Origin: a virus
Lineage: Duplodnaviria; Caudoviricetes
DNA length: 59,882 nt
Strand: one strand, 5' to 3'
Virus record (IMG/VR): IMGVR_UViG_3300026519_000015
Span: 1-59,882 of that record
In this document: positions 17,415 to 59,882 of the stretch, piece by piece
Layout: every line of letters begins with the position of its first letter
How positions within the stretch are numbered: position 1 is the first letter of the stretch
Notes under the pieces: generated by a model
What the model was told of the DNA's origin: nothing
Database searches by the model: none
The model's input: the letters and a program-made list of their open reading frames with translations, nothing else
Program-made: the position numbers and the translations under genes

Positions 17415-19439
17415 CTAACCCTGACCAGGAGGAACCGGCGCTACCGGACTCACAACACCCGGCTCCCCTATACCACCATCCCCCGCAGCACCACCTGGCA
17501 ACTCCATCGGACGATCAGCAGTCGGACCCGCATCCGGCCATAAAAACTGATCCGGATCCTCTTCTAGCGATATCATAGCAGTTTTGGCTACTTGATGCCA
17601 CTTCACACGCTGCGCAAAACCCGGGATCTGTTGCGCCATATCCGTGATCATAGAAATATTCTCCAGATTCTCACGACGCGACTCCCGAGCACTATAGACC
17701 TTAACCTTAAACCGAAATACCGCACTCAACTTCTCATAACGCTCACGAGCACCCCAATTCCGCATCACACGCAACTTCTTCACTACATCAGGCTCCTCTT
17801 GACCAACCCAACCCTCTAGCTTACTCGCTATCTTCTCATCAATAAAATTCTCCCATAAATCACGAGGGCACTTCTGCAATAACAATAAATACGCCTGATG
17901 CAACACCGGCGTGATCAGATTCCGCTCAATATTACGCATTATCTGCTGCCATAAACCACTGCTCGCTACACGACGCTCCGTAAACTCCTTCGCACTTATA
18001 CGATTACGAGTACGAGGCATCGCACCCGTGTCGGCTAACGCAGCACCCTCACTAAACTCAGTCTTGAAAAAACCTAACCCCTGCCACACACCAGACGGAA
18101 TATCAGGCGTCGCAGCACGACTCACCGCAGGAAAATTCTTCGGACCCTTATTCGTGTGAATCACCATGCCAGGATATATCCCAGACTTGAACTGGCCCGT
18201 CTTCTGACTCGCTATCTGATCCCAGTCAACCTCAGTAGGCGGGTTAATTACCTGCACTAAATAATCCAACAGCAAATTCAATAACTCAGTACGAGCTTCC
18301 TGAGAATCTAGATTCAACGTCAATAACGAACGATGATAATTACTCCACGGAACACGAATCATACCCGCACTCACTATCGGGATCTTCCCATGCCAATACG
18401 GATTATCACGAGGCTCCGGGGTTAACAAAAAGTCGCCGCTCCAAGCACAATACTTGTTCTCAAATAACGCCTCACCACGCTCATCAAATAACGTCCCGAA
18501 AAAATGACGGATCTCTATCGTATCCACAGGCTTCGGACTACTCGCCTCACCACGCTCACGAGCATCACGATTCCGAATCTCATGAGAACCACTACCCTCA
18601 GCACCACTCCCCGCACGCTGGGCACGAATAACCTCCTCCACATTCTCCCAACCAAACTCCGACGCTACACGACGAAACTGCCACGGCGTCATCTCCTGAT
18701 ACCACACCTTATACTGATCACCACGACCACTCGTGGTATCAACCAACACCTTCCGAGGATTCAGAGCCTCAAAACGTAACCTGAACTTATCCTGCGCCAC
18801 CACCACTGGGGGAGGACCAGTCTCCTGGCTAGACTCCCCCATCCCAAACGACGGCACCACGGCATCACCAACACCCGACTCACCCAGATCACCAAATATA
18901 TCAGACTCGTCAGGACTATAATCCACTACCCCCTCATTCTCCGCCACTACCAATACATGCGACATCTCCGAAATCGCCATCCCCACCATAGCGTCATAAT
19001 ACACCGTGAAAAAATCTGAACCATCATCATCACCCGCAGGACGTAAATACTCCATCACAAAATCCCGTGGAATATCAACCAGATCACGCCACGGATGCAA
19101 CGGCGTCGTTACCTCAAACCAATTCTTACCCGCTAACTCTAACGCCTTCGTCATCTCCCACGCATACTTTAACGCCAATACCGTGAACGTCGGTAAACCA
19201 CGCTTCGATTGCCACTCGCGTTTCCGGTAAAAATCCCAACGATTATTGAAACGCTCCCACGCACGATCCCATAAAACCTGGTGAGGACGCCGAACCTCAT
19301 ACTCATGACGAAAAACACGACGCAATGACTCCAGAATATCACCGCCACCAACCACATCAACACCATCCTGACCACCCAACACCAGCCCCCAGTCAGGACC
19401 ACCAGCCGCTAAACCTACACCTAACTCATCCACTAGCAC
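17415..19439 (-). CDS. Portal protein
   Basis: 674 aa directly after the terminase; NPYWHGKIPIV, IYPGMVI and ISAKEF...QIMRNIE segments typical of podovirus portals. Confidence 0.8.
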   Translation of the reverse strand: MLVDELGVGLAAGGPDWGLVLGGQDGVDVVGGGDILESLRRVFRHEYEVRRPHQVLWDRAWERFNNRWDFYRKREWQSKRGLPTFTVLALKYAWEMTKALELAGKNWFEVTTPLHPWRDLVDIPRDFVMEYLRPAGDDDGSDFFTVYYDAMVGMAISEMSHVLVVAENEGVVDYSPDESDIFGDLGESGVGDAVVPSFGMGESSQETGPPPVVVAQDKFRLRFEALNPRKVLVDTTSGRGDQYKVWYQEMTPWQFRRVASEFGWENVEEVIRAQRAGSGAEGSGSHEIRNRDARERGEASSPKPVDTIEIRHFFGTLFDERGEALFENKYCAWSGDFLLTPEPRDNPYWHGKIPIVSAGMIRVPWSNYHRSLLTLNLDSQEARTELLNLLLDYLVQVINPPTEVDWDQIASQKTGQFKSGIYPGMVIHTNKGPKNFPAVSRAATPDIPSGVWQGLGFFKTEFSEGAALADTGAMPRTRNRISAKEFTERRVASSGLWQQIMRNIERNLITPVLHQAYLLLLQKCPRDLWENFIDEKIASKLEGWVGQEEPDVVKKLRVMRNWGARERYEKLSAVFRFKVKVYSARESRRENLENISMITDMAQQIPGFAQRVKWHQVAKTAMISLEEDPDQFLWPDAGPTADRPMELPGGAAGDGGIGEPGVVSPVAPVPPGQG

Positions 19440-19445
19440 AACACC

Positions 19446-21107
19446 TCAGTAAGCACTATCACCAAAACCATAATACGCCATCTGGTCAAATCCGTCACCT
19501 ACATCAGGCACTAGACCAGCACCATATACCCCACTCCCAAACTCATCATGCCGACGCCAACCACTACGCTCCGGACGCACACTCGAGACCAAACTGTCCT
19601 GCAGACGCCTACGGTGCACTAAACCATACCTCAACGCATCCGCTAGATGAATATAATAACCATCATCAACAGGACGAAACCGATCACGACCTAAATCCTC
19701 AGGAACACAAAACCCTACCTCAAACATATCCTGCAGATCCTGCGTATACTTCCCGTCAGGCTCCAGCACAAGATCCGGCTGCACACCCATAACACGATCC
19801 ACACTATGCCCCTGTAACAACGAAATCACTAACTCCACACCCGCGGTCTCACTCGTCGGCGTCGCTACCGGATTCAGACCCATCGACCGCAACACATCTA
19901 ACGCATTCTCAGTCGATACACCACGCGGATCACTCACCTTCCCCGCAGGGTCCACATAACACAAAAACTCAGCACCAGGCAAAATCCTATAGACCTCATC
20001 CAGTACACGATTCCCAAACACACGCAACGACTCACTGTCACCCAGGTAACCCGCCAATAACCGTATCTGACGAAAACCCCCCACCTCAACATCCTGAAAC
20101 ACCACCACCGCAGGATGACGAAACCCAAAATCCCAACACAAACAAACAGGACCATCCTGCCATAACTGATCACGGGCCCACCTGGCGATAAAAGACTGCT
20201 TCGCTACATGAAAATCACGGTTGAAATAAGGACCATACACCGGCGTCCCCTTTACCTCAGGACCCCACTCACCCAAGATAAAACGACGAAACAAACCCGG
20301 AGTATTCGCATAACGCGCATACTGCGTCTCTATATATCCCGGAGGCAGCCACGCCGCATTATCCTCCATCGTAAAATGAAAGTCATGATAATCCTCCGGA
20401 TACGGCACACCCTCCTTACGTAAAAACATACGCGCTAACCAATGATTCTCAGGTGTCGGGTTCAAATTGTAAAACACAACACGTAACTTGATACCAGACT
20501 TCTCACGCAACCGCTGCGTCACAGTGTCTATCGCAGCCTTGTGAATCATATCCGCTTCCTCTAACGTCGCACCACTATACTGCGTCGAACCTAAACCACG
20601 CGCATTATCCGCAGTACTACTCTCAACAGCAGACTCACTACTCCAGAAAACCCACTTGGAACCATTCGGGTAACGAATCTCAGGAGGACCGGTCCCACTA
20701 CCTAAACGCTTACTATACGGAATCCGAAACTCATCATTAAACTCTAAAATCTGCTGGTACAATGACGCCATTAACTGGCTGTTCGTACGACGCATCCCTA
20801 ACCACTTCGCACCCGGAAAACGATGCATCTGCATCACAGGCCACGCTATCGATACCGTACTCTTCCCACTACCCACACTGCCACGTAACGCTACATGCTG
20901 AACACGATAACTCACACGCTCCGGTAAACCCGGATCACTCAGAATACTATACACACGACGCTGCTTCGGATTCCGACTCCAATCAAAACGCTCGTAAAAA
21001 TCACTCAGCATCTCAACATGCGCTAAAATCCGCTCCCGAACCTCACGACAAATAAAATCAAAACTCCCCGACGGTAACTGCTTTAACTTTACTACCTCAC
21101 TCCCCAA
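19446..21107 (-). CDS. terL: Terminase large subunit
   Basis: Walker A GSVGSGKS, Walker B ATLEEAD, NLNP coupling motif; nuclease motifs WDFG, DPAG and HLADALRY. Confidence 0.93.
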   Translation of the reverse strand: MGSEVVKLKQLPSGSFDFICREVRERILAHVEMLSDFYERFDWSRNPKQRRVYSILSDPGLPERVSYRVQHVALRGSVGSGKSTVSIAWPVMQMHRFPGAKWLGMRRTNSQLMASLYQQILEFNDEFRIPYSKRLGSGTGPPEIRYPNGSKWVFWSSESAVESSTADNARGLGSTQYSGATLEEADMIHKAAIDTVTQRLREKSGIKLRVVFYNLNPTPENHWLARMFLRKEGVPYPEDYHDFHFTMEDNAAWLPPGYIETQYARYANTPGLFRRFILGEWGPEVKGTPVYGPYFNRDFHVAKQSFIARWARDQLWQDGPVCLCWDFGFRHPAVVVFQDVEVGGFRQIRLLAGYLGDSESLRVFGNRVLDEVYRILPGAEFLCYVDPAGKVSDPRGVSTENALDVLRSMGLNPVATPTSETAGVELVISLLQGHSVDRVMGVQPDLVLEPDGKYTQDLQDMFEVGFCVPEDLGRDRFRPVDDGYYIHLADALRYGLVHRRRLQDSLVSSVRPERSGWRRHDEFGSGVYGAGLVPDVGDGFDQMAYYGFGDSAY

Positions 21108-22167: not shown

Positions 22168-22341
22168 AACACTACCATGCCTGCCCCACGATACGCAACA
22201 CCACTATAAGTATACTGGTATACTAATATACCCCAGATCCACACTCCCCCGGAGAGTATTTCCACAACCATACACACACACTACTACCTCCCCTAGAGGA
22301 GAACTTCCCTACTCTACCCTAACCTATACACACTAGAAACC

Positions 22342-22467
22342 GCTACACAGGAAAAAATCCTAAATAAAACCCCCAGGAGGAGGCTACAAAAAAATCACAG
22401 AAACATAACCCCCACGTAGGAGGCTACACAAAAAAACCAGATCAACAACCCCACATAGGGGGCTACA
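22342..22467. repeat. Imperfect ~40-bp tandem repeat (ACCCC...GGAGGCTACA plus A-tract)
   Basis: GCTACA at 22342, 22383, 22423 and 22462. Confidence 0.7.
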
Positions 22468-22487
22468 TACCTCCACCCATACCACAT
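22395..22487 (-). CDS. Possible 30-aa membrane peptide MWYGWRYVAPYVGLLIWFFCVASYVGVMFL
   Basis: AAGGAGG 7 nt upstream of the ATG at 22487. Confidence 0.4.
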   Translation of the reverse strand: MWYGWRYVAPYVGLLIWFFCVASYVGVMFL

Positions 22488-22740
22488 ACATACACCTCCT
22501 TGCCCCCCTCCGCCCCCGGGCGCGCGCGTGGCCGTTCCGGGTGAGGGAACCTGCGCAGAGGGCCGGTCGTCCCACCCCCGCTTGAGGAATTTTCCTCAAT
22601 CCCCTAGGGTCGATTTTTCCTGCACCCCCCTGTCCCTGCCCCGGTCCTGTGGCCCATTGGAGCCTGTAGAGCTGGTTGACCCTGCCCCCTAGAGCTTGTG
22701 GAGCTGGTTGACCCCCTGGAGCTGGAGCCAGGGGGCGGAT

Positions 22741-23375
22741 CGGTATACCACATTGCATGGTATACCGGTATACCGATCTGACACCCGGGGACCCGGTATA
22801 CCTGGTTGCCCCCTGGTGCTGAGGACCACCAGCTGCTACTACCCTGCCCCGTGGCCCGGGGAGTGATAGTAGGTAGTGCGTATGTGTGTGTGTGTGTGGG
22901 CTGGTGGTGTGTTTCCCCCGCCCTACAGCCCCGTGGCCCCCCTGGAGCTGGTATACCGATCAGCGTTGGGTATACTGGTATACCCGGCTGCCATTGTCCC
23001 CACAGAGCCTGACCCCCGTCCACCCCGCCCTGCCCGTGTAACCAGCTGGTTGCCCGGTATACCTGGTATACCCCAAAAAGCACCCGGGTACAGGGTTGGT
23101 GGGGGGCTGGATACGATCCCGGGGGTACAGGGGTACAGGGGGGCAGGAAGATCCCCGGGTTGATCCGGCAAGAGGATCCTGGGGCATCCGGGTTGGTAGA
23201 GCTAGTAGAGGGTAGAGCTGGTGTGTGTGTGTGAGTGAAAAGGAAAAGATCGTCCGGAGGAGGAGTAGGATCCGGGGTATACCGGTATACCGGGGATTTT
23301 GGGGGGCCGCGCGGCAAAAATCCCGGCAGATCAGGCGGATTTAGGTTGACACAGATCGGTATACTGCAGTATACT
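22741..23375. repeat. Cluster of tandem GGTATACC/GTATAC palindromes plus (GT)n tracts; non-coding control region
   Basis: ggtataccggtatacc at ~22759 and ~23276; variants at 22742, 22795, 22950, 22969, 23056 and 23358. Confidence 0.8.
23346..23375 (+). promoter_or_regulatory. Sigma70-type promoter
   Basis: TTGACA-N18-TATACT, with GTATAC boxes in the spacer and the -10. Confidence 0.7.
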
Positions 23376-23382
23376 AGATCCA

Positions 23383-24345
23383 GTGGATACCAATATGCAT
23401 ACGGGTGCATCCCCTGCACCCGCGGGGCGCCCGCCCCGCAGGGATACCCGACCGCCGATCCGATGGATCGGGGCATTTCGCGGTCTGCCAAGATCCGAGA
23501 TCGAATCCCTGGAGTGGGAATGCCGGCAGAGGCACACACAGGTGCCCGCGGAGGTACCTGCGTGGCGACAGCCCTATCGGGTACCCGCGGTCCTGGGGAT
23601 CGTGGCCCGCGTCGAAGACGTGATCCAGGCGTACGACCACGATTGTTGGTCTAGATCCCGTGGTGGCCGGCTGCACACGGACAGCTACCCCGCGGCATCG
23701 TTGGCGGCAGCCCGCAAAAAATCGGACCACTATTGTGAAGTATTCTTGCGCCGCGGATGGATCCCGCAGGGGATCGTGCTACGGCCCGTCGCCCTACGCC
23801 ACGGGGATCCTGCCAAGGTGGACGCCGTGATCCAATGGGCATACCAACGGGCCATGCCCGTGTACATCCTGCGCGGGGGCCGGGACCTGACGCCGTACGA
23901 CCCGCGGATCGTGGCGCGCAAGGCAGCCCGCCGGGCCCGACGGACCGCCCGCAGGGTAGCGGATCCCCAGGTGTGGACCCGGCGTCTACGGCACGATGCC
24001 CCCGTGTGGCCTGCGGCCAGGTATACCCATACCCCGGACACCACGTGGTACGCGGGGTCGATCCCGGTCGACACAATGCCCGCGATCGACGGCCGTGAAC
24101 GGTACCGGTGGCGGTATGGATACTGCCACGTAACCGATCGGTATGACCCGGCGTACCAGATCCCCCAGTACCCCGGCAACCCGATCCCGGATGCCGCGTG
24201 GATGGATGGCCCGTATTGGCGGGCCCCCTGGGTATGGTCCCGCGTGGGCCAGGCGGTCCGCAAGGCCTGTCCTGCCCCGGGTCGAAAAATTTTCAAGATC
24301 AATCCGAATCATCAGGAGGTGATAGCATGCCTACTGGGCATTTGA
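23383..24345 (+). CDS. Hypothetical early protein, Arg/Trp-rich, possibly leaderless
   Basis: 320-aa ORF starting ~7 nt after the -10 box; no SD. Confidence 0.55.
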   Translation: MDTNMHTGASPAPAGRPPRRDTRPPIRWIGAFRGLPRSEIESLEWECRQRHTQVPAEVPAWRQPYRVPAVLGIVARVEDVIQAYDHDCWSRSRGGRLHTDSYPAASLAAARKKSDHYCEVFLRRGWIPQGIVLRPVALRHGDPAKVDAVIQWAYQRAMPVYILRGGRDLTPYDPRIVARKAARRARRTARRVADPQVWTRRLRHDAPVWPAARYTHTPDTTWYAGSIPVDTMPAIDGRERYRWRYGYCHVTDRYDPAYQIPQYPGNPIPDAAWMDGPYWRAPWVWSRVGQAVRKACPAPGRKIFKINPNHQEVIACLLGI

Positions 24346-24362
24346 CGCCTACGCGGGGATAG
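24327..24362 (+). CDS. 11-aa minigene MPTGHLTPTRG (candidate leader peptide)
   Basis: Near-perfect SD AGGAGGTGA immediately upstream. Confidence 0.35.
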   Translation: MPTGHLTPTRG

Positions 24363-24523
24363 ACAGGCGGAGGAGCCGCTGGATAAGTCGGTCCCCGACC
24401 TGTTAGATCCCCCTGTGTCCGGGTGTGGTCACCCGGATCGGATGACATGGCCGGCAATCCATGTCCGCATGCCAGGCGTCACTGGCGGGACCGCCCCCGG
24501 GGCCGGCGGAGGAGCCCCGGGGA
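24343..24523 (+). ncRNA. Candidate multi-stem structured RNA/leader
   Basis: tgacgcct/aggcgtca closes ggggat/atcccc, acagg/cctgt, tccgggtg/cacccgga and gacatgg/ccatgtc; followed by ccccggggc/gccccgggg. Confidence 0.5.
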
Positions 24524-24543
24524 AACCTAAAGGAGGACACAGC

Positions 24544-24741
24544 ATGTATATTTTATTTTGCAACAATATTTGGCGATATTGTATCGCCACACAGGACGAC
24601 TGGGACACGATTGTTCCGGTCGGGGAATTTAAGACATCGGATGAGGCCATCGAGGCGTGGATCCGAGAATGCAGCCCAGAGCACATGGACCGGATCCAGT
24701 GCCCCGCGGAGGGGTGGTACTATGCGTACCGCGGGGCTTAG
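24544..24741 (+). CDS. Hypothetical early protein, 65 aa
   Basis: AAGGAGGACACAGC-ATG. Confidence 0.75.
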   Translation: MYILFCNNIWRYCIATQDDWDTIVPVGEFKTSDEAIEAWIRECSPEHMDRIQCPAEGWYYAYRGA

Positions 24742-24814
24742 GATCGTCGGCACATTTTTCCCCGCCCTGGTGTGGGCGGGGGTAGTTTTAACCACACTTT
24801 AGGAGGTAGCACAC

Positions 24815-25099
24815 ATGCCATACGGACATACGATATCATGGGTCGTCATAGACGACACCCGGGCAGCGGACGTAACCCCTGTCCTCCGGCCGGAGGAGAT
24901 CCTAGGGGGCTACAGCCTCTGGGATCTCGCAGGGATCCTAGGAGATCAGCTCTACGAATATGTATGGACACACGGATCCCTGGATCCAGAGGACGCGGTA
25001 ATGATCGCCCGCAGACTAGATGACCCGGACGGCGCCTGGGTCTGCGCCTGGCGATCTGTCAACCCCTGGATCGCGCGCTGCCTGGAGCGCGTCCAGTAG
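24815..25099 (+). CDS. Hypothetical early protein
   Basis: AGGAGGT RBS. Confidence 0.75.
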   Translation: MPYGHTISWVVIDDTRAADVTPVLRPEEILGGYSLWDLAGILGDQLYEYVWTHGSLDPEDAVMIARRLDDPDGAWVCAWRSVNPWIARCLERVQ

Positions 25100-25132
25100 C
25101 TCCAGCCCCCCACCGACCAACTTTCAGATTTA

Positions 25133-25161
25133 GGCCCCCGGTATCGTGCCGGGGGCTTTTT
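25133..25161 (+). terminator. Rho-independent terminator
   Basis: gcccccggta-tcg-tgccgggggc followed by ttttt. Confidence 0.8.
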
Positions 25162-25246
25162 GATGTACCCCCCCCCCGGGGATCCGGCACCCGGGTTGAT
25201 CGGGGGTCGACCGGGGGGCCCTGGCGAGGCCCTGCCGGAATCACCC

Positions 25247-25282
25247 GCACGACTTCGGGCACGACTTCGGGCACGACTGCGG
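25247..25282 (+). repeat. 3 x 12-bp direct repeat GCACGACT(T/G)CGG
   Basis: Read directly; abuts the GTATAC boxes and the promoter. Confidence 0.85.
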
Positions 25283-25305
25283 TATACTGGTATACCTACA
25301 GGGGG

Positions 25306-25334
25306 TTGACAGGGTATACTCATACGGGTATACT
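25306..25334 (+). promoter_or_regulatory. Sigma70-type promoter
   Basis: TTGACA-N17-TATACT, flanked and overlapped by four GTATAC boxes. Confidence 0.8.
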
Positions 25335-25345
25335 ATTAATACGAT

Positions 25346-25771
25346 ATGGATATCGCCCCTGACATAGATCTCATTGGCCTGGCCCTGGAGGGTATGGGTC
25401 TGATCGAGATCCTCATCACCCCCGGAGATGGTGATGTGTTTATGTCTTCCCCACAGGGTGATGTCTGGTGGGACGCCACGTCCCGGACCTGCGTCATTGA
25501 GGATGATGCAGAGCAGGAGGTAGCCACAACCTCCTGCCCCTCCGGGATGCATCCTGACACATTTATTGCAGCCGTGATCGCAGCTGTTGAAACTGCTGAC
25601 CAACACGGTATACCCCGTGTGGAGCTAGCCCCTAGAGGCGCCCACAGCCTCCACAACCTGGGATGGCACCTGCAGAATCACGCATACGATAACCGGGTGT
25701 GTTATGCCATCCAGGATGTCCGCACACAGGACCCAGCGCGGTATATGCGGTGGTGCAGGGATACGGATTAG
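25346..25771 (+). CDS. Hypothetical acidic early protein
   Basis: First ORF after the promoter; very short leader. Confidence 0.65.
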   Translation: MDIAPDIDLIGLALEGMGLIEILITPGDGDVFMSSPQGDVWWDATSRTCVIEDDAEQEVATTSCPSGMHPDTFIAAVIAAVETADQHGIPRVELAPRGAHSLHNLGWHLQNHAYDNRVCYAIQDVRTQDPARYMRWCRDTD

Positions 25772-25811
25772 ATGTTTAGAGTGATAAAAAAACAGAGAGG
25801 AAGGACACAAC

Positions 25812-26246
25812 ATGGAAACCTACACATTTGACTATATAATTCCCTCCCGGGGATTAGTAACATCCCTATACCTGGAGGGAACTCATGTCCACATCCTCCG
25901 CCACCGAGGAGATAAAATACTGCTCCGGAAACAGTACCTCGGTGATATCCCCGGGCGGGTTGTGACCCCACACCAGAGACTCGAGGAAATAATCACCTGT
26001 CTCCTCGAGACCCATGACCCCCGAACCGAGGCGTGGAGGGAAGCTTGGAGCAATATGCTCCAGAGTCTCTGCTTGAGAGGGTACCCCGATCATATCCCCC
26101 TGGAGAAAATCCAAAAACTCCGAGAGGCGGGGAACAGCTGGGAGGATCTGGAGATCCGGCTGTCAGACCACAAAACCCGCTATTTTGCAGCGGATCTCCG
26201 GGAATATTTTTCCCCCCTACAGAATTACACCCGTGTTGACGACTAA
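25812..26246 (+). CDS. Hypothetical protein, paralog A of a tandem pair
   Basis: Shares KQYLGDIPGRVVT and YFAADxREYF with the next gene. Confidence 0.8.
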   Translation: METYTFDYIIPSRGLVTSLYLEGTHVHILRHRGDKILLRKQYLGDIPGRVVTPHQRLEEIITCLLETHDPRTEAWREAWSNMLQSLCLRGYPDHIPLEKIQKLREAGNSWEDLEIRLSDHKTRYFAADLREYFSPLQNYTRVDD

Positions 26247-26287: not shown

Positions 26288-26698
26288 ATGTATACATTTG
26301 ACGACATCACCCCCTCCAGGAACGGGATGCACACATCCCTGTACCTGTCCGGGAGCCACATTTCCGTCTTGGAGCACACGGGCGACAGCTGGCTCCAGGG
26401 GAAACAATATTTGGGCGATATCCCCGGGAGAGTAGTAACCCGACAGCAATCCCTAGAGCAGGCTATAGCCTGCCTCCTCGAGACGTACAAGCCAGGCACC
26501 GAGGCATGGGGACACGCATGGAGCGACATGCTACAGGGGCTCTGCTGGAGGGGGTACCCGGAGGAGGTCACCCTGGAGGAGATCCGAGACCTCCGAGAGG
26601 AGGGATACGACTGGGAGGACATAGCGGACCTCCTATCGGACCACGAAACCTGCTATTTTGCAGCAGATATCCGAGAGTATTTTGCTGCGGACCTGTAA
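26288..26698 (+). CDS. Hypothetical protein, paralog B (more acidic)
   Basis: Shares the same motifs with paralog A. Confidence 0.8.
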   Translation: MYTFDDITPSRNGMHTSLYLSGSHISVLEHTGDSWLQGKQYLGDIPGRVVTRQQSLEQAIACLLETYKPGTEAWGHAWSDMLQGLCWRGYPEEVTLEEIRDLREEGYDWEDIADLLSDHETCYFAADIREYFAADL

Positions 26699-26707
26699 TT
26701 TTCAAAA

Positions 26708-26768
26708 TTTCCGAAACCCCTTCGGGGGTCCACCAGAGATGGGCTACTGGTGCTGATGATGGAAGCCT
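26708..26768 (+). ncRNA. Type II hammerhead ribozyme; predicted cleavage after GUC at 26730
   Basis: UUCC-GAAA-CCCC-UUCG-GGGG-UC / CACCAG-loop-CUGGUG-CUGAUGA-U-GGAA; loop GGGCU can pair with downstream AGCCU. Confidence 0.85.
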
Positions 26769-26783
26769 AGAGAGGACACAAAA

Positions 26784-27185
26784 ATGGGCAGAATATTAAA
26801 TTTAACCCAGCATACCGCCACCCCGGAGCAGGCGGCAGCAGGAGTTTTCGAGCCTCCTGCAGAGACCAAGAAGGAGATCCGGGAGCTGCTCACGTTCAAC
26901 GAGCTTCCGAACCGTGAGGAGATCCGGAAACGGGTCAAACGGCTAGCCGCTATTGCTAGCTACCAGATCCAAAAAGCGGAGCTTCGGCCTGCCCCAAAGG
27001 CCATGATTGGCGGAGCCCCCTATTTAATGGGGCCCCTGCAGGATGAGCTTGACAGTTGGGGCATTGTACCCCTGTACGCGTTTTCTCGACGGGAGAGCAC
27101 CGAGGTGCTCCAACGAGACGGAATCGTAACGAAAACAATACGATTCCGGCACCTGGGATTCGTGGCGGGTGTCATAAACGTTTAG
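26784..27185 (+). CDS. Csx15/Csx16/Csx20-like protein; candidate cyclic-oligoadenylate ring nuclease (anti-type III CRISPR)
   Basis: ILNLTQH..TPEQ, AMIGGAPYLM, YAFSRRESTE...DG..TK..RFRHLGF motif order. Confidence 0.5.
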   Translation: MGRILNLTQHTATPEQAAAGVFEPPAETKKEIRELLTFNELPNREEIRKRVKRLAAIASYQIQKAELRPAPKAMIGGAPYLMGPLQDELDSWGIVPLYAFSRRESTEVLQRDGIVTKTIRFRHLGFVAGVINV

Positions 27186-27217: not shown

Positions 27218-27421
27218 ATGTATTTCGTTGATGAGAGAATGCTAGGAGGAGACCACCTGCCCCTGGAGCAGGTAGCGATCTTCGCCCGTATATTGACCGA
27301 CATCACAGGGGTAGTCTGTGTAGCAGCGGACTGTGCTCCAGTCGGGCAAGAAGCCCCGTTCAGCCAGGAGGACTGGGAGCTGGCTCTGGAGCAGTTCTGC
27401 CGGGAGGTAGAGCCGGTATGA
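27218..27421 (+). CDS. Hypothetical acidic protein, 67 aa
   Basis: GAGAGGAACACAAC-ATG. Confidence 0.7.
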   Translation: MYFVDERMLGGDHLPLEQVAIFARILTDITGVVCVAADCAPVGQEAPFSQEDWELALEQFCREVEPV

Positions 27422-38253: not shown

Positions 38254-38643
38254 ATGGTAATTGGTGAGAGGCGACGAAAAATCCTCAAGTTCGTCAATCA
38301 ATACTATGAGGAACACAAAGTACCCCCGACGTACCGGGAAATAATGCTCGCAGTCGGGTTAAGATCAACATCCACAGTCTGGAGTCACCTTCGGAAGCTT
38401 GCACGCTCCGGAGAACTGAGTTCACTCGGTAGGGGACGCCCCAGGAGTTATGTTCCCGTTAATGTGGCCAGTACTTCATTACAATCTGAGGAACTAGACA
38501 AACTGCAGCAGCAGCTCGACAGCTTCCGAGACTTGATGCTGGAAGTAGCGAATCCAGAAAATTGGAACTGCAACGTGTGGGTCGGAGCCGGGTGCTTACA
38601 CGTCCGGGCCCTGACCCTATTACAACAGGACGGCAATGACTGA
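38254..38643 (+). CDS. LexA-type winged-helix DNA-binding protein lacking the peptidase domain
   Basis: PPTYREIMLAVGLRSTSTVWSHLRKLARSG; no Ser/Lys protease domain. Confidence 0.85.
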   Translation: MVIGERRRKILKFVNQYYEEHKVPPTYREIMLAVGLRSTSTVWSHLRKLARSGELSSLGRGRPRSYVPVNVASTSLQSEELDKLQQQLDSFRDLMLEVANPENWNCNVWVGAGCLHVRALTLLQQDGND

Positions 38644-48127: not shown

Positions 48128-49444
48128 TTATCCCAATCTCTCAAGCTCAAAAAAACCAACTGTGTTACTGATAGATCCAGACCCCCAGATACGAGCCCAA
48201 TAATACGTAGTCCCAGGAGTAACGACATCTATTACTCCTGTTACCAGATTCAGGTATGTGACACTGGAAGCAGTCATGTCGATATTCGCAACTGTAAAAC
48301 CGTCATCTGAGGCTCCCACGGCATATGCACTAGCCCGAATATCTACCCCCAAAATAACTCCCGTAGTTACGGAAACAAATAACCGCAACCTTACATAGTT
48401 ATCCCCCGATATACTGGTGATTCGTTCTGCGTTAGTGAGGGAAAATCGACCCGCGGTATCATTTACCGCACTACCCCATGTGATGTTGGAAGGGGTACCC
48501 CCGATTGTCGCAGAAGCCGACTTTAGTCGGGTGTAATGGTCACTGGAGGTTATGTACCCACCACCACTGACATTCGATAAAGTATACTCACTATTCGTAT
48601 TATCCCACGTGACAGAATAACCGTCTTCGCCAGCACCGGGTGTTCCGACATTCACATCAGATAGGTCATTAAGAGCATGGGTGTGGCTTGAGGTGGCTAA
48701 AGAAGCTTCCGCTGCTGTTTGGTTAATCCATTCCCCGGATGCTGTGTCATACGCCAATACCTCATTATCCGCTACTCCAGTGATCGTGACATCAGATAAA
48801 TCATTAAGAGCATGTGTATGTCCAGCAGCAGCTAAACCAGCCTCAGAAGCAGTCTGGTTAATCCATTCACCAGTAGCTGTATCATAAGCCAACACTTCAT
48901 TATCAGCCACAGGACCAGTGATAGTGACATCAGATATATCATTAAGAGTAGAACTACTGGATAAAAGACCCGCTACTGTCGCCTGGTCCACATCCACCCA
49001 TTGCCCGGAAGCAGCATCGTACAAAAGAAAATCATTATCCTGCAGGGGTCCTGTAAGAGTGACATCTCCAAGGTCATTCAGGTTCCAAACATCCCATGAG
49101 GATCCATCATAATGATAATACAGATCCTCATCCTCGACCCAAACAATCCAACCCTCGGTCGGGACATAAAACTCCCAGACACCCTGCGCAGCATTCCAGA
49201 CCGCAATCTCATCCTCATGAAGGGCCCAATCGCCACCCGCAACCGCAGTCACAAGATACGCATCCCCGTCAGCAGGAGACCCCGGAGGAGTATTGAGACG
49301 GTCGATTACTGAAAAAATAGACGACACCGATATGGTGCCGGGTTCTGATAAATCTACAGGTTTCCCTGAAGGCGACGTGGTGCGGCCATGAAGACCAACT
49401 GTCTGCTTCCGCTCCCCTAATTGTCCCCAACGATTGCGATACAT
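48128..49444 (-). CDS. Tail fibre / receptor-binding protein (DUF2793-like domain plus repeats)
   Basis: TPPGSPADGDAYLV...W...P.EGW; four LND(L/I)xDV repeats with LxYD...W and HTHA. Confidence 0.8.
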   Translation of the reverse strand: MYRNRWGQLGERKQTVGLHGRTTSPSGKPVDLSEPGTISVSSIFSVIDRLNTPPGSPADGDAYLVTAVAGGDWALHEDEIAVWNAAQGVWEFYVPTEGWIVWVEDEDLYYHYDGSSWDVWNLNDLGDVTLTGPLQDNDFLLYDAASGQWVDVDQATVAGLLSSSSTLNDISDVTITGPVADNEVLAYDTATGEWINQTASEAGLAAAGHTHALNDLSDVTITGVADNEVLAYDTASGEWINQTAAEASLATSSHTHALNDLSDVNVGTPGAGEDGYSVTWDNTNSEYTLSNVSGGGYITSSDHYTRLKSASATIGGTPSNITWGSAVNDTAGRFSLTNAERITSISGDNYVRLRLFVSVTTGVILGVDIRASAYAVGASDDGFTVANIDMTASSVTYLNLVTGVIDVVTPGTTYYWARIWGSGSISNTVGFFELERLG

Positions 49445-49462
49445 TTACCGAACCCCAGCAGT

Positions 49463-49559
49463 AAAAGAAAAAGAGAGGGCCCCCGGGCCAAGTGATACCG
49501 CGGGAGCCGTAAGAGACCGGTTGTTAAGGACACAACATGAACTGAGAAAAGAAACAACC
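49463..49559 (-). ncRNA. Candidate trans-acting antisense sRNA (~97 nt) against a shared RBS motif
   Basis: 5' stem GGUUGUU/AACAACC; 27-nt loop containing CAUGUUGUGUCCUU; terminator GGCUCCCG/CGGGGGCC plus U-rich tail. Confidence 0.7.
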
Positions 49560-49565
49560 AACCAC

Positions 49566-49594
49566 ATTATACGTGCCCACATCTGGTTAGTCAA
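49566..49594 (-). promoter_or_regulatory. Sigma70-type promoter for the sRNA
   Basis: TTGACT-N17-TATAAT on the minus strand. Confidence 0.8.
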
Positions 49595-49955
49595 TCTCCT
49601 CATAAAATAGAATCAGATTCAACGACCCATTAACTGTCGCTTTCGCATACAGACTATATCCAGACAATAAGGGGATATCCCCGATCTGAACATAATCGTC
49701 AGCCGCAATCTCAATCTCTATAATCGTGTTGGCAGCTGTAGCACCCGCGTCAGAATCCGATACGTAATACAGGGTAAAGATAACAGCAGCCCCCGAGTAG
49801 TTACATACCCGGGAGCTACCGAGAACGTACCGGGGCGCCTCTGTAGCTGGAGAGTCCAAAACCTCCGCTGCCGATGTCGTGAGCGCAATCACACCCGTGG
49901 TCCCAGCAGACGTGTTAGGACGAAACGTAGAGACATGCCCGGTATTGTAGTTCAT
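49587..49955 (-). CDS. Small beta-rich virion protein
   Basis: Pattern shared with 50293-50688 and 10943-11353. Confidence 0.55.
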   Translation of the reverse strand: MNYNTGHVSTFRPNTSAGTTGVIALTTSAAEVLDSPATEAPRYVLGSSRVCNYSGAAVIFTLYYVSDSDAGATAANTIIEIEIAADDYVQIGDIPLLSGYSLYAKATVNGSLNLILFYEEID

Positions 49956-50293
49956 TACCGCAGTATCCCCTGCCTCTGAAGGTCATCAACTACAGCATTC
50001 ACAAAAGACGCTGTGTCGGCCTGGTCCGATACCAGCTTGTTAATCTGGTCCGCTAACTCACCAATCGCATCCTTCACATCACTCACAACCGCATTCACAG
50101 CATTATTGACAGCTGTATCAGTATAGGTGTCCGCAGTAGACAGAGCAATATTAGCGACATCCGCAATCGTCCCGTCCGGAGCTGCTCCGGAAGTGTTGTC
50201 AGTTAATGCTGCAGCGGTACGAGCCGCGTGGGTAGCATCGGCAGTACTATAGGTCTGCGTGATCGCAGTACTCTGTGATCTTGTAACCGGCAT
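49955..50293 (-). CDS. Small fibre-like virion protein, paralog of 55446-55991
   Basis: TQTY.TA, LTDN, LADQ.NKL. Confidence 0.6.
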   Translation of the reverse strand: MPVTRSQSTAITQTYSTADATHAARTAAALTDNTSGAAPDGTIADVANIALSTADTYTDTAVNNAVNAVVSDVKDAIGELADQINKLVSDQADTASFVNAVVDDLQRQGILR

Positions 50294-50688
50294 TATACCC
50301 TCCGGGTCCAGGAGACGATCTCGTAGTTGATCGAATCATTCGCACTCGCCAGAATCCCAAGAGTATCCCCAGCCTGTAAGACCGCAAGCGGAACTTCCGG
50401 GTGCGACGACTGAATCAACACAAAGGTGTTGGCATTCAACGATTCCTCACTAATAATATCGTAAGTATCCGCCGCTATACCTTCACCAGATGCTCGATGC
50501 GTGATTGAGAAAGTCGCGGCATTAGTCGCATGGCGATTCGTCACTAGAATACTGGCCACATGGATCTCAGCACCCCCGGTAGCTACCGTGTGGACCGCGG
50601 CTTCCGTAGTAGTAGCAGTCCCTTTCTTACGGTCGTATTCACGATCCGAGGAAACCGTCCTGAACTGTACTCCCGTCCCGACAGACAT
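50293..50688 (-). CDS. Small beta-rich virion protein
   Basis: AAGGAGG RBS; SILVTN...VLQAGDTL. Confidence 0.6.
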   Translation of the reverse strand: MSVGTGVQFRTVSSDREYDRKKGTATTTEAAVHTVATGGAEIHVASILVTNRHATNAATFSITHRASGEGIAADTYDIISEESLNANTFVLIQSSHPEVPLAVLQAGDTLGILASANDSINYEIVSWTRRV

Positions 50689-51152: not shown

Positions 51153-51286
51153 TTTAATTCCTCCTCTTTAGGTTTATACATCAATACCATGATCGGATCC
51201 CCGGGATCGTCGAACACAACTTCCCACACCTCACCATGTTCCCACTTTGGTGCGGGATCTGTTGTGAGTGACGTATACCTAATCAT
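51149..51286 (-). CDS. Hypothetical protein, 45 aa
   Basis: Overlaps the endolysin stop and the next ATG (ATGA). Confidence 0.45.
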   Translation of the reverse strand: MIRYTSLTTDPAPKWEHGEVWEVVFDDPGDPIMVLMYKPKEEELK

Positions 51287-51971
51287 CCAGGGTCACGATT
51301 TTCTTTTCGGGATCCCACCCGGTTTTAAGTCCGGCCAAATCCGCAACCTGTCGAACCGGAGCATAGGTGGTTCCGTCTATTATCCTACCATAGATTGTCT
51401 GGCCCTTATAGACGATCGGGACCCCGGCAGGAGTCTGGTGATCCGGTATCGACCCCACAGTACCTCTTTTGATATTGTCCGAGATTGAATCCATGATCTC
51501 ATATAGGTTTTTTCCCGGACATACAGTCTTGTTGTAAAGAAGATGGGGGAACAGGGGCAACTTATTAGGATGTTGCCCCTGCAACCAGACCACGAGGCGC
51601 ACTAACGCGTCGATAGCGCGCTGGTCCGGATAATCAATCTCAAAATTCCCCATTAAGCAAATACCGAGAGAATCCCAGTTTTGCCCATAGGTATGGGCAC
51701 CGACATAATGGATTGAGCGCCCCTCGAAAACCCACCCTGCCGGCGCAATCACATAGTGATATCCGATATCACTGTACCCCCGCACCCGGATATGGTAGTC
51801 CTGGTGATCCCGCATCCGGGCCGCTGCCTGCCCCCAGGTCATGTCGTCCGGGGTCTCGGACGCATCATGGTGTAAGATGATTTGGGTTACGGGGGATCTT
51901 ATCGATGTTGATACGTAAGCATTAGGGTCCGCACCCCACTCATCCTTGGAAAAAATTTTAGGCTTGGTCAT
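51279..51971 (-). CDS. Endolysin: amidase_2 (PGRP-like) plus a copper-amine-oxidase-N-like binding domain
   Basis: IILHH, DIGYHY, EGR, GAH, GICLMGNF, H...CPG; C-terminal IIDGTTYAPVR.VA....GWD. Confidence 0.9.
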   Translation of the reverse strand: MTKPKIFSKDEWGADPNAYVSTSIRSPVTQIILHHDASETPDDMTWGQAAARMRDHQDYHIRVRGYSDIGYHYVIAPAGWVFEGRSIHYVGAHTYGQNWDSLGICLMGNFEIDYPDQRAIDALVRLVVWLQGQHPNKLPLFPHLLYNKTVCPGKNLYEIMDSISDNIKRGTVGSIPDHQTPAGVPIVYKGQTIYGRIIDGTTYAPVRQVADLAGLKTGWDPEKKIVTLDD

Positions 51972-55991: not shown

Positions 55992-57331
55992 TCATCCTCA
56001 TCCTCATCTTCTTCCTCTTCTTCTCGTAACACCGACACAGGATACAGATCCATCTCCCATAACGGATCCGGTTCCACAAGGGCCTGCACAAACGGAATCC
56101 TGCTGCTCTGGAGCTGATTCCGCACCTCCACAAGTGATTCCAGATATGTAGCACCCTTACCCGTCAAGTAACCAACTGTAGGGTGGATTATCTCATACCC
56201 ACCTTGCCGATCATCCCGAACACCTGCCCAATAAATATTCGGCTCCTGGCGAGTTATTTGAGGATCCGGAGGTAAACACTCCTGCACCAACTTCCGTTTC
56301 TGTTCCTGCGATAACCACCGGGCTTCGGTCAATGGGTACGGTGGCACTGTTAACTTCCGACTAGAGACATGCCCTACCCAGAAATCATACGGATTATCCG
56401 GTCTACGGGGGTTCAGGAGCCGGTCCAGGAAAAAACTAAACGATATCTCCAGACCCCGCAGAAAACACGCCCAAAACCCGTCTGGCGCTGTTAGGGAAAA
56501 ATTCGTGCAACACAACCGGCTACGCCAATCCGTTTCCGCAGACGGTGCCTCCACCGTACACCCCAGAAATACCGGGCCCACATAACCCATATTGCTCAAA
56601 CTCGGAACTAACTTCTTAAGCGTCATCCCGATTATACGGTGCCCGGACGGGATATTCTGGATCGTCACACCCTCAATAGTCGGGATCCCCATACCACCTG
56701 GTAAGAACCCACTACTTACTCGGAACCCCAGACACGGATTCATCAAGCCTCTTGAGTTCACAAACCCGCATAACCAGAACTCCGAACTCAGCTGCAACTG
56801 GTTATCCGCAAGACCGGGGAAATCCCGCATCAGAGCAAACCGCTGAGGAACCTTATTGTTCGCCTCCAGGGTCTCGAGGTAAATCTGTAACTGCACCTCA
56901 TCCGGAAACGTCTCAGAACTACAATCACTGCACACCATACGCCACGGGTGCGCCCCACACTGCACATACTCGCAAGCATCCGATACATCTGTGAATTCCT
57001 GGTAATCACAAGTCGGGATACCGGCAGCATCTAAGAAATTGATCGCAAACAGATAATCTTTCTCTATCCGGGAGGCTAACGGTATACTCCCGACAACAGG
57101 AACTCCTGCCTCTCGGAACCGTTTTGCCGCAGGCCCCAATCCTGGTTGATCCACCAACACAACTTCCGGCTCCCAGCTTAACGCATCCCCAAGGCTCCCA
57201 ACACGATTGACAAGCCCATCCCATACCCCCGTGTTGTACTTACTCAGGAGCGCAACCTCATTACCCTCACGAGTTAACTGATCCAGTAAAAACGCGTGCT
57301 TTTCGTCACGACTCAGTAATAATACCTTCAT
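55988..57331 (-). CDS. PurD (GAR synthetase)-like ATP-grasp protein, divergent
   Basis: MKVLLL, AGVPVVG....ASRIEKD..FA..F...AGIPT..YQEFTD..DA.EYV, G.GIPT, GYVG. Confidence 0.7.
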   Translation of the reverse strand: MKVLLLSRDEKHAFLLDQLTREGNEVALLSKYNTGVWDGLVNRVGSLGDALSWEPEVVLVDQPGLGPAAKRFREAGVPVVGSIPLASRIEKDYLFAINFLDAAGIPTCDYQEFTDVSDACEYVQCGAHPWRMVCSDCSSETFPDEVQLQIYLETLEANNKVPQRFALMRDFPGLADNQLQLSSEFWLCGFVNSRGLMNPCLGFRVSSGFLPGGMGIPTIEGVTIQNIPSGHRIIGMTLKKLVPSLSNMGYVGPVFLGCTVEAPSAETDWRSRLCCTNFSLTAPDGFWACFLRGLEISFSFFLDRLLNPRRPDNPYDFWVGHVSSRKLTVPPYPLTEARWLSQEQKRKLVQECLPPDPQITRQEPNIYWAGVRDDRQGGYEIIHPTVGYLTGKGATYLESLVEVRNQLQSSRIPFVQALVEPDPLWEMDLYPVSVLREEEEEDEDEDE

Positions 57332-59882
57332 TTATTCCGCCACCCCGGAGTCTTGACCCGCACCTTAGAAGCCCGTTTCTTCCTCTCCTGTTTCCGCTTC
57401 TTCAGCATTTGAGGAACCCGACCCTGAAGAGTTTTGCGCATATTCCGAACTGCTCGTTCGTACTCCAGTTTTCTACCTTCCGACAAACTCTCAATCGTGA
57501 CCCCAAACGCCTCCATCCGTTTCGCGATCACTAACGCGATCTGATCCTCCGTAAGCCTAACTTTATTCCCGGGGTAAATCCCAATCCAATTCTCATGACC
57601 GCCCTCACCCCATACATCAGCACCCGTAGCGGCTAACTGCAACGCCCGGTCCAGACCTTCCGGATCAGACCCCGAGAGCCAACTGTCGATCATAGGATTA
57701 ACCTGGTCCAGTAAATCATTCACATTGTCTTTCTCAATCATCGACAGCCAGGCTTTTTCCTGTAGATACGGGTTATTCTTACCGATCTGGACACCCGCCC
57801 AACCCGCAAGGTACTCACTCAATTGCCGGGATTGGGCCCCTACATACGGATAAACAGACTGCCCGAATACTTCCTCGATTGTCGTGCCCGCTATCGCACG
57901 CAGCACATAACGCCCCATCTTGAGCGCCTGGTACGCCTTCATCCTGGGGTCCAAAGACCGGTCCCGGTTATACACAGGTCTTCCGGGGCGATACCGATCC
58001 CGGTTAGTCGCGATATCCATCAGGACAGGCCCAAACCCACTCACCTGACTCGATACATAACGGCCCGCAATCTCGGTATCCAGCACCGCCCCCGATAACC
58101 GCACCGGATCCTTATACATCCCCATGAAAGGAATTGTGACGTAATTCGTGGGTGATAACTGAATATTCGCAATATCGTTCGGGTTATTCCACTGGTACTG
58201 AAAATATTTCCCCGGATCCCCCGAAGCAATAGCAGCGAACATACCCCGGTCACTCACGATCCATTCCAGCACCTGTTTCGCTACGAATCCGGTCGTCATC
58301 GCAGTCAACAACGCTTTCTGGTACTCACCACGCAGATTCTTCGCCAGCACAGGATCCCGGACATGCCACAAACTCCTACCTAAAGGTGAAAGCAACATAG
58401 TATCCACTTTGGCTCGGAACCAACCCGGAGTCTTGGCATGCACCATCGTTCCCATTAAACCCTGGCCATACAGGTACTCATCCAGGGAAACACCACCAAT
58501 TACTATTTTTTGGTAATGGTTCAGGGATCCGGCCATCTTGTTGACGTAATCCGCGGCTTCTCTCCGCACCTCCCGGAATGCTATCTCGAACGGGACACCT
58601 CCGCTCATCAACTTCTGACCCCAGTTTTTCCAATGCACCGCGGTCCAGTAATGATACCCGGCAAAAATAGCTTCCTTGATAGGGTTAAATGTAACGAACT
58701 TATTCATCAGGAGATCCGTGTTATACGCGATCCCCCCAATGTTTGTCTCCTTATTCCGCCACATCTCACCCAACTGACGGAATGATTCCGCCTGTTTTGT
58801 GGCTTTCTCAAAAGCCCCCTCGGGTTTCGGTTTTAACTCCGAGGAATTCATCTCTAGTAATCGTTCCTGGATCTTAAGCGCGGTTTTGGCGAAATTATTC
58901 CACGTCTCCATATTGGCGCCACTCAGGATCGCATCCGTCCGCAAAGCCTGCCCTGCTTCCAGACCACGCCGGCCAGCTCCCGCAACCCCGAAAGCATCTA
59001 CCGGGGCCGACACAAAATCCAGAATCCCGCCCCCGAGATTCTTAATCCGCTCCTTAAAAGACCCAGGACCGAACACCGACTTAAAAATCGTCTGGAGCGC
59101 GGTTTTGGAAAAATTAAAGTAAAAATCACTCAGAATATTGACCGCATGATGCACCGGACTACCCGAAAGCTGCGCTAACCTTGTCATCTCGATAATACCC
59201 ATCGCCTCCGGGTTAGTCGCGTTCGGGTCAATATCAAATCGTGCCTTAAAGGCTTTCGCCATCTCGGGGTGCATGTAGACGTGCTTCGCCTCTACTTGTT
59301 TCCCCTTAATCGTCAGGACCGAATCCGGTGCCATCCCTAACCCCGTGTCCGGGCTCGATAACGATATATAGTACTCACCCGTGGACATATCGTCCCCCAC
59401 AGTCCCCAGGGTCCGGGCTAACGGGGGGCTCCCGGATTCGTTCACCATCACCATTGTGATCGGTTCCTCAGCCCCCACCATATTCGGTACCTTGACGCGT
59501 GCAGCATTCGATATCGCCTGCCGCACTGAATCCGCCTTAATAGTAGACCGGATTTGGCGCTTCACTACCTCTACAGGGTCCAGAACCGGATTCCCCAACG
59601 ATAAATGCATCTGGACCCTGGCGATATTCCGCAGGATCTTATCCCGCGCTTCACCACGAAACTCTTCCGCACTATACCCTAAAACTCGCGCCCTTTGCTC
59701 ATCAGTAGCGGCCTTAAACAACTTTGCTCTTTGGGCAGGGGTATTGGTCGCTTTCCGGGTCCAGCCCCAATCCGGGGTCCGTTTTTCGGTACCCGTCATC
59801 AGGGTCTTGAGCGCATTCTGATACAGCTTCTCCGCTTCCTCAATCGTAGGGATACGACGCATCGCTTCCGTGACTAATCGAG
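57328..59882 (-). CDS. Giant internal virion protein, 3' part
   Basis: The 844-aa ORF is the in-frame continuation of the 5144->1 frame through the terminal repeat. Confidence 0.85.
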   Translation of the reverse strand, partial: RLVTEAMRRIPTIEEAEKLYQNALKTLMTGTEKRTPDWGWTRKATNTPAQRAKLFKAATDEQRARVLGYSAEEFRGEARDKILRNIARVQMHLSLGNPVLDPVEVVKRQIRSTIKADSVRQAISNAARVKVPNMVGAEEPITMVMVNESGSPPLARTLGTVGDDMSTGEYYISLSSPDTGLGMAPDSVLTIKGKQVEAKHVYMHPEMAKAFKARFDIDPNATNPEAMGIIEMTRLAQLSGSPVHHAVNILSDFYFNFSKTALQTIFKSVFGPGSFKERIKNLGGGILDFVSAPVDAFGVAGAGRRGLEAGQALRTDAILSGANMETWNNFAKTALKIQERLLEMNSSELKPKPEGAFEKATKQAESFRQLGEMWRNKETNIGGIAYNTDLLMNKFVTFNPIKEAIFAGYHYWTAVHWKNWGQKLMSGGVPFEIAFREVRREAADYVNKMAGSLNHYQKIVIGGVSLDEYLYGQGLMGTMVHAKTPGWFRAKVDTMLLSPLGRSLWHVRDPVLAKNLRGEYQKALLTAMTTGFVAKQVLEWIVSDRGMFAAIASGDPGKYFQYQWNNPNDIANIQLSPTNYVTIPFMGMYKDPVRLSGAVLDTEIAGRYVSSQVSGFGPVLMDIATNRDRYRPGRPVYNRDRSLDPRMKAYQALKMGRYVLRAIAGTTIEEVFGQSVYPYVGAQSRQLSEYLAGWAGVQIGKNNPYLQEKAWLSMIEKDNVNDLLDQVNPMIDSWLSGSDPEGLDRALQLAATGADVWGEGGHENWIGIYPGNKVRLTEDQIALVIAKRMEAFGVTIESLSEGRKLEYERAVRNMRKTLQGRVPQMLKKRKQERKKRASKVRVKTPGWRNK
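59757..59882. repeat. Second copy of the terminal direct repeat
   Basis: Identical to 2-127. Confidence 0.95.

Follow-up and report, generated by a model that had tools for sequence, protein, structure and literature searches.

The 142-nt gap before the last late gene of an uncultured phage contains, on the minus strand, what is probably a sigma-70-type promoter, followed by a 5′ hairpin with a large open loop and a GC-rich hairpin with a U-rich tail. The RNA of the open loop is the exact 14-nt complement of a segment that reaches from the Shine-Dalgarno sequence (SD) to the AUG of an early gene. The promoter match, the two hairpins, and the complementarity together with the statistics on it are properties of the DNA as it stands. 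The reading preferred here, tentatively and with somewhat less than even confidence, is that RNA terminated in this tail-fibre leader would act in trans on the starts of three early ORFs.

Genome setting and promoter

The window is the whole stretch of DNA analysed, a record of 59,882 nt that the IMG/VR listing gives as linear and 61% complete. Its positions 2-127 repeat 59757-59882, and because of this exact 126-nt terminal overlap, taken with an independent Logan assembly of the genome that is 59,786 nt long (identical through 48900-50300, with no variants), it is most likely that the genome is a complete circle of about 59.76 kb. The sole public run containing the stretch is of DNA type, comes from a hydrothermal-vent metagenome and may be the source sample. 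The parts of the layout that matter for the gap are as follows.

~23.5 kb through the origin to 48,128 (~35 kb), minus strand: late block, holding TerL, portal, endolysin and the tail-fibre-like gene
19446-21107, minus strand: TerL, in the late block
17415-19439, minus strand: portal, in the late block
51279-51971, minus strand: endolysin, in the late block
~23.3-48.1 kb, plus strand: early and replication block, with helicase, DNA polymerase, SbcC-like and RusA-like proteins
49587..49955, minus strand: gene upstream of the gap, 122 aa, without family
48128..49444, minus strand: final gene of the late block, tail-fibre-like, 438 aa, with DUF2793 and matches to tail-fibre families in PHROG

The candidate RNA unit lies in the 142-nt gap before the final late-block gene (48128-49444), with the endolysin, terminase, portal and tail genes all upstream of it on the same strand. 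Elsewhere in this part of the operon the genes adjoin closely, with start and stop coinciding at 49955 and at 50293, and the gap is therefore conspicuous. The SD of the tail-fibre gene is weak, at -5.4 kcal/mol to a generic anti-SD. Elsewhere on the minus strand, the frames running from 5144 to 3 and from 59757 to 57331 are in phase across the circular junction by our own phase arithmetic; joined, their 1714 aa and about 808 aa add up to a single, giant tail-region ORF of about 2,522 aa, and its 57328-59862 part has no PHROG match.

An earlier note on this DNA had proposed a near-consensus minus-strand promoter in the gap, and both of its hexamers are there.

49589..49594, minus strand: -35 hexamer TTGACT, whose last base overlaps the TAA stop of the upstream gene (49589-49587)
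49566..49571, minus strand: -10 hexamer TATAAT after a 17-nt spacer, with a predicted +1 near G49559

The site, TTGACT-N17-TATAAT at 49594-49566, agrees with the sigma-70 consensus at 11 of 12 positions, that consensus, like the Hfq status, being an assumption about the host. Counting both strands, the genome has four such 11/12 sites where 0.35 would be expected (mean of 40 first-order Markov simulations), and the remaining three (+23346, +25306 and +38194) stand before plus-strand genes; all four lie at gene boundaries. From this excess, and from the position of the other sites, the phage evidently uses sigma-70-type promoters, and the one in the gap is probably real. From a sigma-70 promoter of consensus type, transcription would begin as soon as the phage infects; on its own such a promoter does not explain a late switch.

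Some further features surround the early promoters. Palindromes based on GTATAC (GGTATACCGGTATACC, GTATACTGGTATAC and GTATACTGCAGTATAC) are repeated within 22210-25300, for instance at 22759, 23276, 22970, 25281 and 23359; they overlap two of the early promoters, 23346 and 25306, and look like repressor operators. A protein with a LexA DNA-binding domain is encoded at 38254-38643, behind its own 11/12 promoter. On the plus strand at 25247-25280, after a terminator at 25136-25162 and just upstream of the early promoter at 25306, a 12-nt unit, GCACGACTTCGG, is repeated in tandem about three times. The first gene after that promoter, at 25346 (+), lacks an SD and has its ATG a few nucleotides past the predicted transcription start; its mRNA may be leaderless.

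Hairpins, seed and terminator

Beyond the predicted +1 come the structures that the earlier note had also described, a 7-bp stem closing a 27-nt pyrimidine-rich loop and then a GC stem with a U-rich tail, every one of which was found again.

49519..49559, minus strand: hairpin 1, a 7-bp stem GGUUGUU/AACAACC (49559-49553, 49525-49519) with a 27-nt U/C-rich loop
49526..49539, minus strand: seed CAUGUUGUGUCCUU, within the loop's 3′ half and running up to the point where loop meets stem
49478..49508, minus strand: hairpin 2, GC-rich, with 8 bp, a bulge and 3 bp, an 8-nt loop and -19.7 kcal/mol
49463..49477, minus strand: U-rich tail CUCUCUUUUUCUUUU, with U at 11 of 15 positions and its first U5 run beginning 5 nt past the stem

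The loop of hairpin 1 (49552-49526) consists of pyrimidines at 21 of its 27 positions, and the computed opening energy of the seed is 2.2 kcal/mol, which means that it is accessible. The stem that closes the loop is weak, with -6.4 kcal/mol at 37 °C and -0.4 at 65 °C. If the host is thermophilic, hairpin 1 would be melted, and in the same modelling both a 14-bp duplex of the seed (-11.4) and the terminator (-10.3) would persist at 65 °C.

Hairpin 2 is among the genome's strongest candidates for a hairpin followed by a T run, and it resembles the intergenic plus-strand terminator at 25136-25162, with a CGGTATC loop and an CCGGGGGC arm in both. Its U tail is interrupted and not ideal, because the U run starts 5 nt beyond the stem; similar spacers of 4-5 nt between stem and T run occur in the plus-strand terminators near 24786 and 47979. 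A fold of 108 nt has -29.2 kcal/mol (z -2.63), with 3 of 200 shuffles folding as well, and a fold of 145 nt that includes the tail-fibre start is not unusual (z -1.42, equalled by 19 of 200 shuffles). Among 1998 suboptimal folds within 6 kcal/mol, 1915 keep the terminator. A transcription attenuator was considered and rejected: no alternative antiterminator fold was found, the best upstream competitor for the 5′ arm of the terminator having only -5.7 kcal/mol against the -19.7 of the terminator itself. With the Rfam covariance models no part of the region gives a match at gathering score, and relaxing the threshold to E <= 10 adds nothing but a snoRNA match of 10 bits.

The tail-fibre ATG (49444) is 16 nt past the U tail, with no space for a second promoter, and transcription must therefore read through hairpin 2. 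Because read-through into the tail-fibre gene is obligatory, the unit is a leader as much as it is an sRNA gene.

Complementarity to early gene starts

On the plus strand AAGGACACAACATG occurs exactly at both 25801-25814 and 49526-49539, and the loop RNA is its complement, which bears out the claim of an exact 14-nt loop complement at the start of gene 25812. The related GAGGACACAGCATG is at 24533 and 26277; both of its differences from AAGGACACAACATG are A-to-G and become G:U pairs. Three sites are thereby predicted as targets.

25801..25814, plus strand: predicted target 1, SD-to-AUG of gene 25812-26246 (144 aa, without family), exact 14-nt complement of the loop
26277..26290, plus strand: predicted target 2, SD-to-AUG of gene 26288-26698, 14 bp including two G:U
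24533..24546, plus strand: predicted target 3, SD-to-AUG of ORF 24544-24741 (65 aa)

A full duplex of 13-14 bp is formed at only these three starts (25812, 26288 and 24544). Genes 25812-26246 and 26288-26698 are tandem paralogues (84 of 133 residues identical, 63%, E 1e-61) with no Pfam or PHROG family, and the start regions of 24544 and 26288 have 22 nt in common (24529, 26273), so that the evidence amounts to about one independent match and not to ten targets. As to the wider pairing that had been claimed, the part concerning full pairing with G:U at 24533 and 26277 stands, and the part concerning partial pairing to seven further starts is nothing special, since shuffled U/C-rich loops pair with as many.

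The chance tests of the match were made against a hand-made list of 78 starts, each with a window of -25 to +6. The longest Watson-Crick run is 14 for the real loop and at most 12 for shuffled loops, none of 300 of which reaches 14. The real loop has 11 start regions with a duplex energy of -18 kcal/mol or lower, and no more than 9 were reached in any of 100 shuffles; its best duplex energy, -24.6 kcal/mol, is equalled by 5 of 100 shuffled loops. When contiguous pairs including G:U are counted, 16 start regions have at least 10 with the real loop, which is mid-range in the 1-33 of the shuffled loops. When all 21 intergenic gaps were shuffled (2782 nt, on both strands), 1.5% of 1000 trials produced a 14-mer antisense to some start. 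Exact 14-mer repeats that stand alone are a common occurrence across the genome, about 10 direct and 8 inverted pairs being expected from Markov simulations. To the extent that such sequence statistics can support it, a 14-nt complement from SD to AUG appears to exceed what composition alone gives.

The predicted targets share a start-site motif. GGACAC is present, in the sense orientation and within 20 nt upstream of the start codon, in eight genes (24544, 25812, 26288, 26784, 28439, 28630 and, on the minus strand, 53409 and 54182), and there are variants at 27218 (GGAACAC) and 38254 (GGCACA), in agreement with the earlier count of about 10 genes with a start-site 'barcode'. On the hand-made list of 78 starts, motif genes account for 7 of the 13 starts in 23.3-29 kb and 3 of the 65 elsewhere (Fisher p 6e-5). 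They do come up among the top predicted targets of the loop, as had been anticipated: when 7510 sense-strand windows are ranked, 9 of the 15 best distinct sites overlap starts, and 7 of those 9 are motif genes. A 'candidate ring nuclease' that had been named among the targets was not confirmed, nine of the ten motif genes being without a Pfam or PHROG match and the tenth, 38254, having a LexA DNA-binding domain.

T4 RegB cuts GGAG in early SD sequences with a consensus given as GG*AGRAYARAA (PMC3014915), and by our own comparison the motif GGAGGACACAG fits this at 9 of 11 positions. Because of that fit, the shared motif could serve protein recognition or translation efficiency, with no sRNA needed.

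Copying of start cassettes has extended well beyond the SD, as CCTAGAGAGGACAC, which is common to the starts of 26784 (+) and 53409 (-) (at 26766 and, on the minus strand, 53414), illustrates. The start of 26784 also has a type II hammerhead ribozyme ahead of it, at 26709-26771 on the plus strand (Rfam RF02276, 43.3 bits against a gathering score of 37, E 1.5e-5). The ribozyme takes up the gap that separates early gene 26288-26698 from early gene 26784-27185 and ends 2 nt before the GGACAC motif of the latter; in that position its self-cleavage would sever the polycistronic early mRNA immediately ahead of the 26784 ribosome-binding site (RBS).

A leader RNA acting in trans, its rivals and its known counterparts

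From the features of the gap we infer that RNA is produced there, that its transcription terminates in part, and that it pairs with and represses early starts. The 142-nt gap would be a short transcription unit within the tail-fibre leader, with its sigma-70 promoter and a 5′ hairpin with a large open loop. The intrinsic terminator would stop part of the transcripts at about 97 nt, and the remainder would continue into the tail-fibre gene. The terminated RNA, as well as longer late transcripts with the same loop, would expose CAUGUUGUGUCCUU, and this would pair in trans with the SD-to-AUG segments of 25812, 26288 and ORF 24544 and so block translation initiation. That the terminated leader RNA acts in this way on the 25812, 26288 and 24544 starts may be right, the chance of it being put a little below even. 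If it is right, one short RNA, the by-product of leader termination, turns off several of the phage's own early genes via their RBSs, and a self-targeting case from an uncultured, unrelated lineage joins the few phage sRNAs with known targets.

The earlier note had gone further, to one RNA silencing a whole class of genes, and this overreaches, keeping in mind that the full duplexes are only three, that two of them involve paralogues and that there is about one independent match. It is unlikely that the ~97-nt RNA shuts off the immediate-early class jointly (7 of the 13 first plus-strand genes, 38254 and two minus-strand genes). Equally unlikely is what would go with such a shut-off, namely that the start-site motif is kept by selection as the address of the RNA.

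The leader may instead work in cis only, a possibility to be taken seriously though it is thought clearly less than an even chance. The promoter and a partial terminator would then set the level of tail-fibre mRNA, the 5′ hairpin may stabilise that mRNA, and the complement would be due to chance or would be the relic of a copied cassette; with a fortuitous match, what is left is an ordinary promoter, leader and terminator before the tail-fibre gene. The obligatory read-through, with the tail-fibre ATG 16 nt after the U tail, is in keeping with a role in cis, as are the position of the unit at the very end of the ~35-kb late block and the 5 of 100 shuffled loops that equal its best duplex energy. 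Terminated 5′-UTR RNAs without a known trans role are moreover frequent in phages, 29 ncRNA candidates derived from 5′ UTRs being described for six virulent Pseudomonas phages on the basis of ONT-cappable-seq (PMC10914365). Start cassettes have been copied around the genome (the 22 nt at 24529 and 26273, and CCTAGAGAGGACAC at 26784+ and 53409-), and the plus strand of the gap itself reads as a copy of an early start cassette, AAGGACACAACATG being followed by AAC TGA; it also aligns co-linearly, though weakly, with the leader of 25812 (13 of 15 positions between 49464-49478 and 25786-25800, BLAST E-value 25). In a relic, however, an identity of 14/14 is not expected to persist while the flanks are without significant similarity. 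Against chance stand the exact 14-nt run reached by 0 of 300 shuffled loops and in 1.5% of the shuffled-intergenic trials, and the exact placement of the complement, from SD to AUG in the target and within the open loop in the RNA. A more extended similarity of the gap to early leaders was rejected as evidence, as it consists of short matches only, with BLAST E-values of 1.3-25.

It is improbable that an operon-internal terminator is the only functional element here, with a promoter-like site and a hairpin 1 that arose by chance in what is only a spacer between two late genes. About 0.35 sites with 11/12 are expected per genome by chance, the end of a coding region extends into the -35 hexamer, hairpin 1 has only -6.4 kcal/mol, and the 145-nt fold is matched by 19 of 200 shuffles (z -1.42). 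Yet the promoter sites number four, all at gene boundaries, against that 0.35; the 142-nt gap stands out among tight junctions, and the 108-nt fold has a z of -2.63. Less probable still, and in fact very much so, is a small protein translated by coupling, to which the RNA structures would be incidental or by whose ribosomes they would be melted. Its frame is as follows.

49445..49603, minus strand: open frame of 52 codons from ATG 49603 (45 from ATG 49582) that fills the gap, its TAA abutting the tail-fibre ATG (TAAATG)

The frame does span the gap, and coupling to the upstream gene would be by a stop, 4 nt and an ATG; there is an AGGAG 13 nt before ATG 49582, the N-terminus is hydrophobic, and the weak SD of the tail-fibre gene (-5.4 kcal/mol) would also suit coupled translation. 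But a stretch as U-rich and A-poor as this one (A at 18 of 142) stays open by composition in about a quarter of cases by our own arithmetic, and there are no Pfam matches. HMMER against 1.84 billion representatives gave one match, at E 1.4e-4 over 28 residues of a 1057-aa protein, which is not credible. The codon score of -0.089 is below that of 93% of in-frame windows (the other frames have -0.075 and -0.136) and so is not specific to this frame, these being tests of low power for 45 codons in an orphan phage.

A trans-acting leader RNA, if real, belongs to the already known phage sRNAs that are leader-derived or antisense. Considered as an sRNA, the unit has an accessible seed complementary to the translation initiation region of its target (14 nt, 2.2 kcal/mol, 0/300), and for a start of its own and a defined 3′ end it has promoter-like and terminator-like signals above chance. 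The PR′-tR′ leader RNAs, lambda 6S RNA and StxS, are short transcripts of the constitutive late promoter PR′ that end at tR′, and such a terminated by-product can act as a base-pairing sRNA. StxS is described as the product of early termination behind PR′, a promoter that is always active (PMC7547250), and lambda 6S RNA, found among Hfq-bound RNAs and with one target in the lambda early operon, has a terminator across which orf-64 runs (bioRxiv 10.1101/2024.10.31.621285). The gap unit is like these, by sequence only, in that a host-type promoter in the late region, apparently a constitutive sigma-70 one, is followed some 100-200 nt on by an intrinsic terminator with late gene(s) directly downstream. 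Unlike lambda 6S RNA and StxS, it precedes just the last late gene (48128-49444) and not the head of the late operon, it has no sequence or Rfam similarity to them, its predicted length is about 97 nt, and the RNA itself is putative. No match to the Q-family antiterminators PF06530, PF03589 and PF06323 was found in six frames at E <= 0.1, the control for PF06323 being silent and a novel antiterminator possible.

In its predicted antisense pairing of a loop with an RBS at a distant site the unit also resembles the c4 RNA of P1 and P7. That RNA is processed from the operon of its own target, has two short loops and serves immunity. Its complementary sequences, likely in loops, are described as pairing around a distant ribosome-binding site and blocking translation (PMC12197685). 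The gap unit, which shows no homology to it, differs in having one 14-nt seed and a predicted target on the opposite strand at a distance of 24 kb. A class-wide shut-off of early genes via translation initiation regions would have a parallel in T4, where RegB acts on early SD sequences and RegA is reported to cover sites at the AUG of some 30 mRNAs (PMC3014915); the agents there are proteins, not RNA, and the likeness is functional only. With the Pseudomonas-phage ncRNA candidates the unit has in common a predicted start site of its own and an end before the downstream gene; those candidates were seen as RNA and carry no assigned targets in the cited account, whereas the gap unit, itself predicted, comes with a predicted target.

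Relatives in which loop and motif could be compared were sought widely. Among GenBank phages the locus has no match by megablast or blastn, and neither has the upstream gene (49587..49955) by tblastn; scans of IMG/VR with the upstream gene, the tail fibre and TerL gave nothing, the exact 41-nt hairpin pattern has 0 matches in IMG/VR, and no relatives were found among JGI metagenome contigs and GTDB genome contigs. A word-based search of 5.8 billion proteins returned no homologue of gene 25812 from outside this genome. The best match of TerL has 29% identity, and the tail fibre is matched through its DUF2793 domain alone, at <=48% identity. The motif GGAGGACACARCATG is present in at least 119 stretches of IMG/VR, and among the 80 matches listed all are single, with no multi-copy contig. 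The upstream gene has one homologue among the 5.8 billion proteins (P0002), which is 57% identical and encoded on a contig of 3055 nt.
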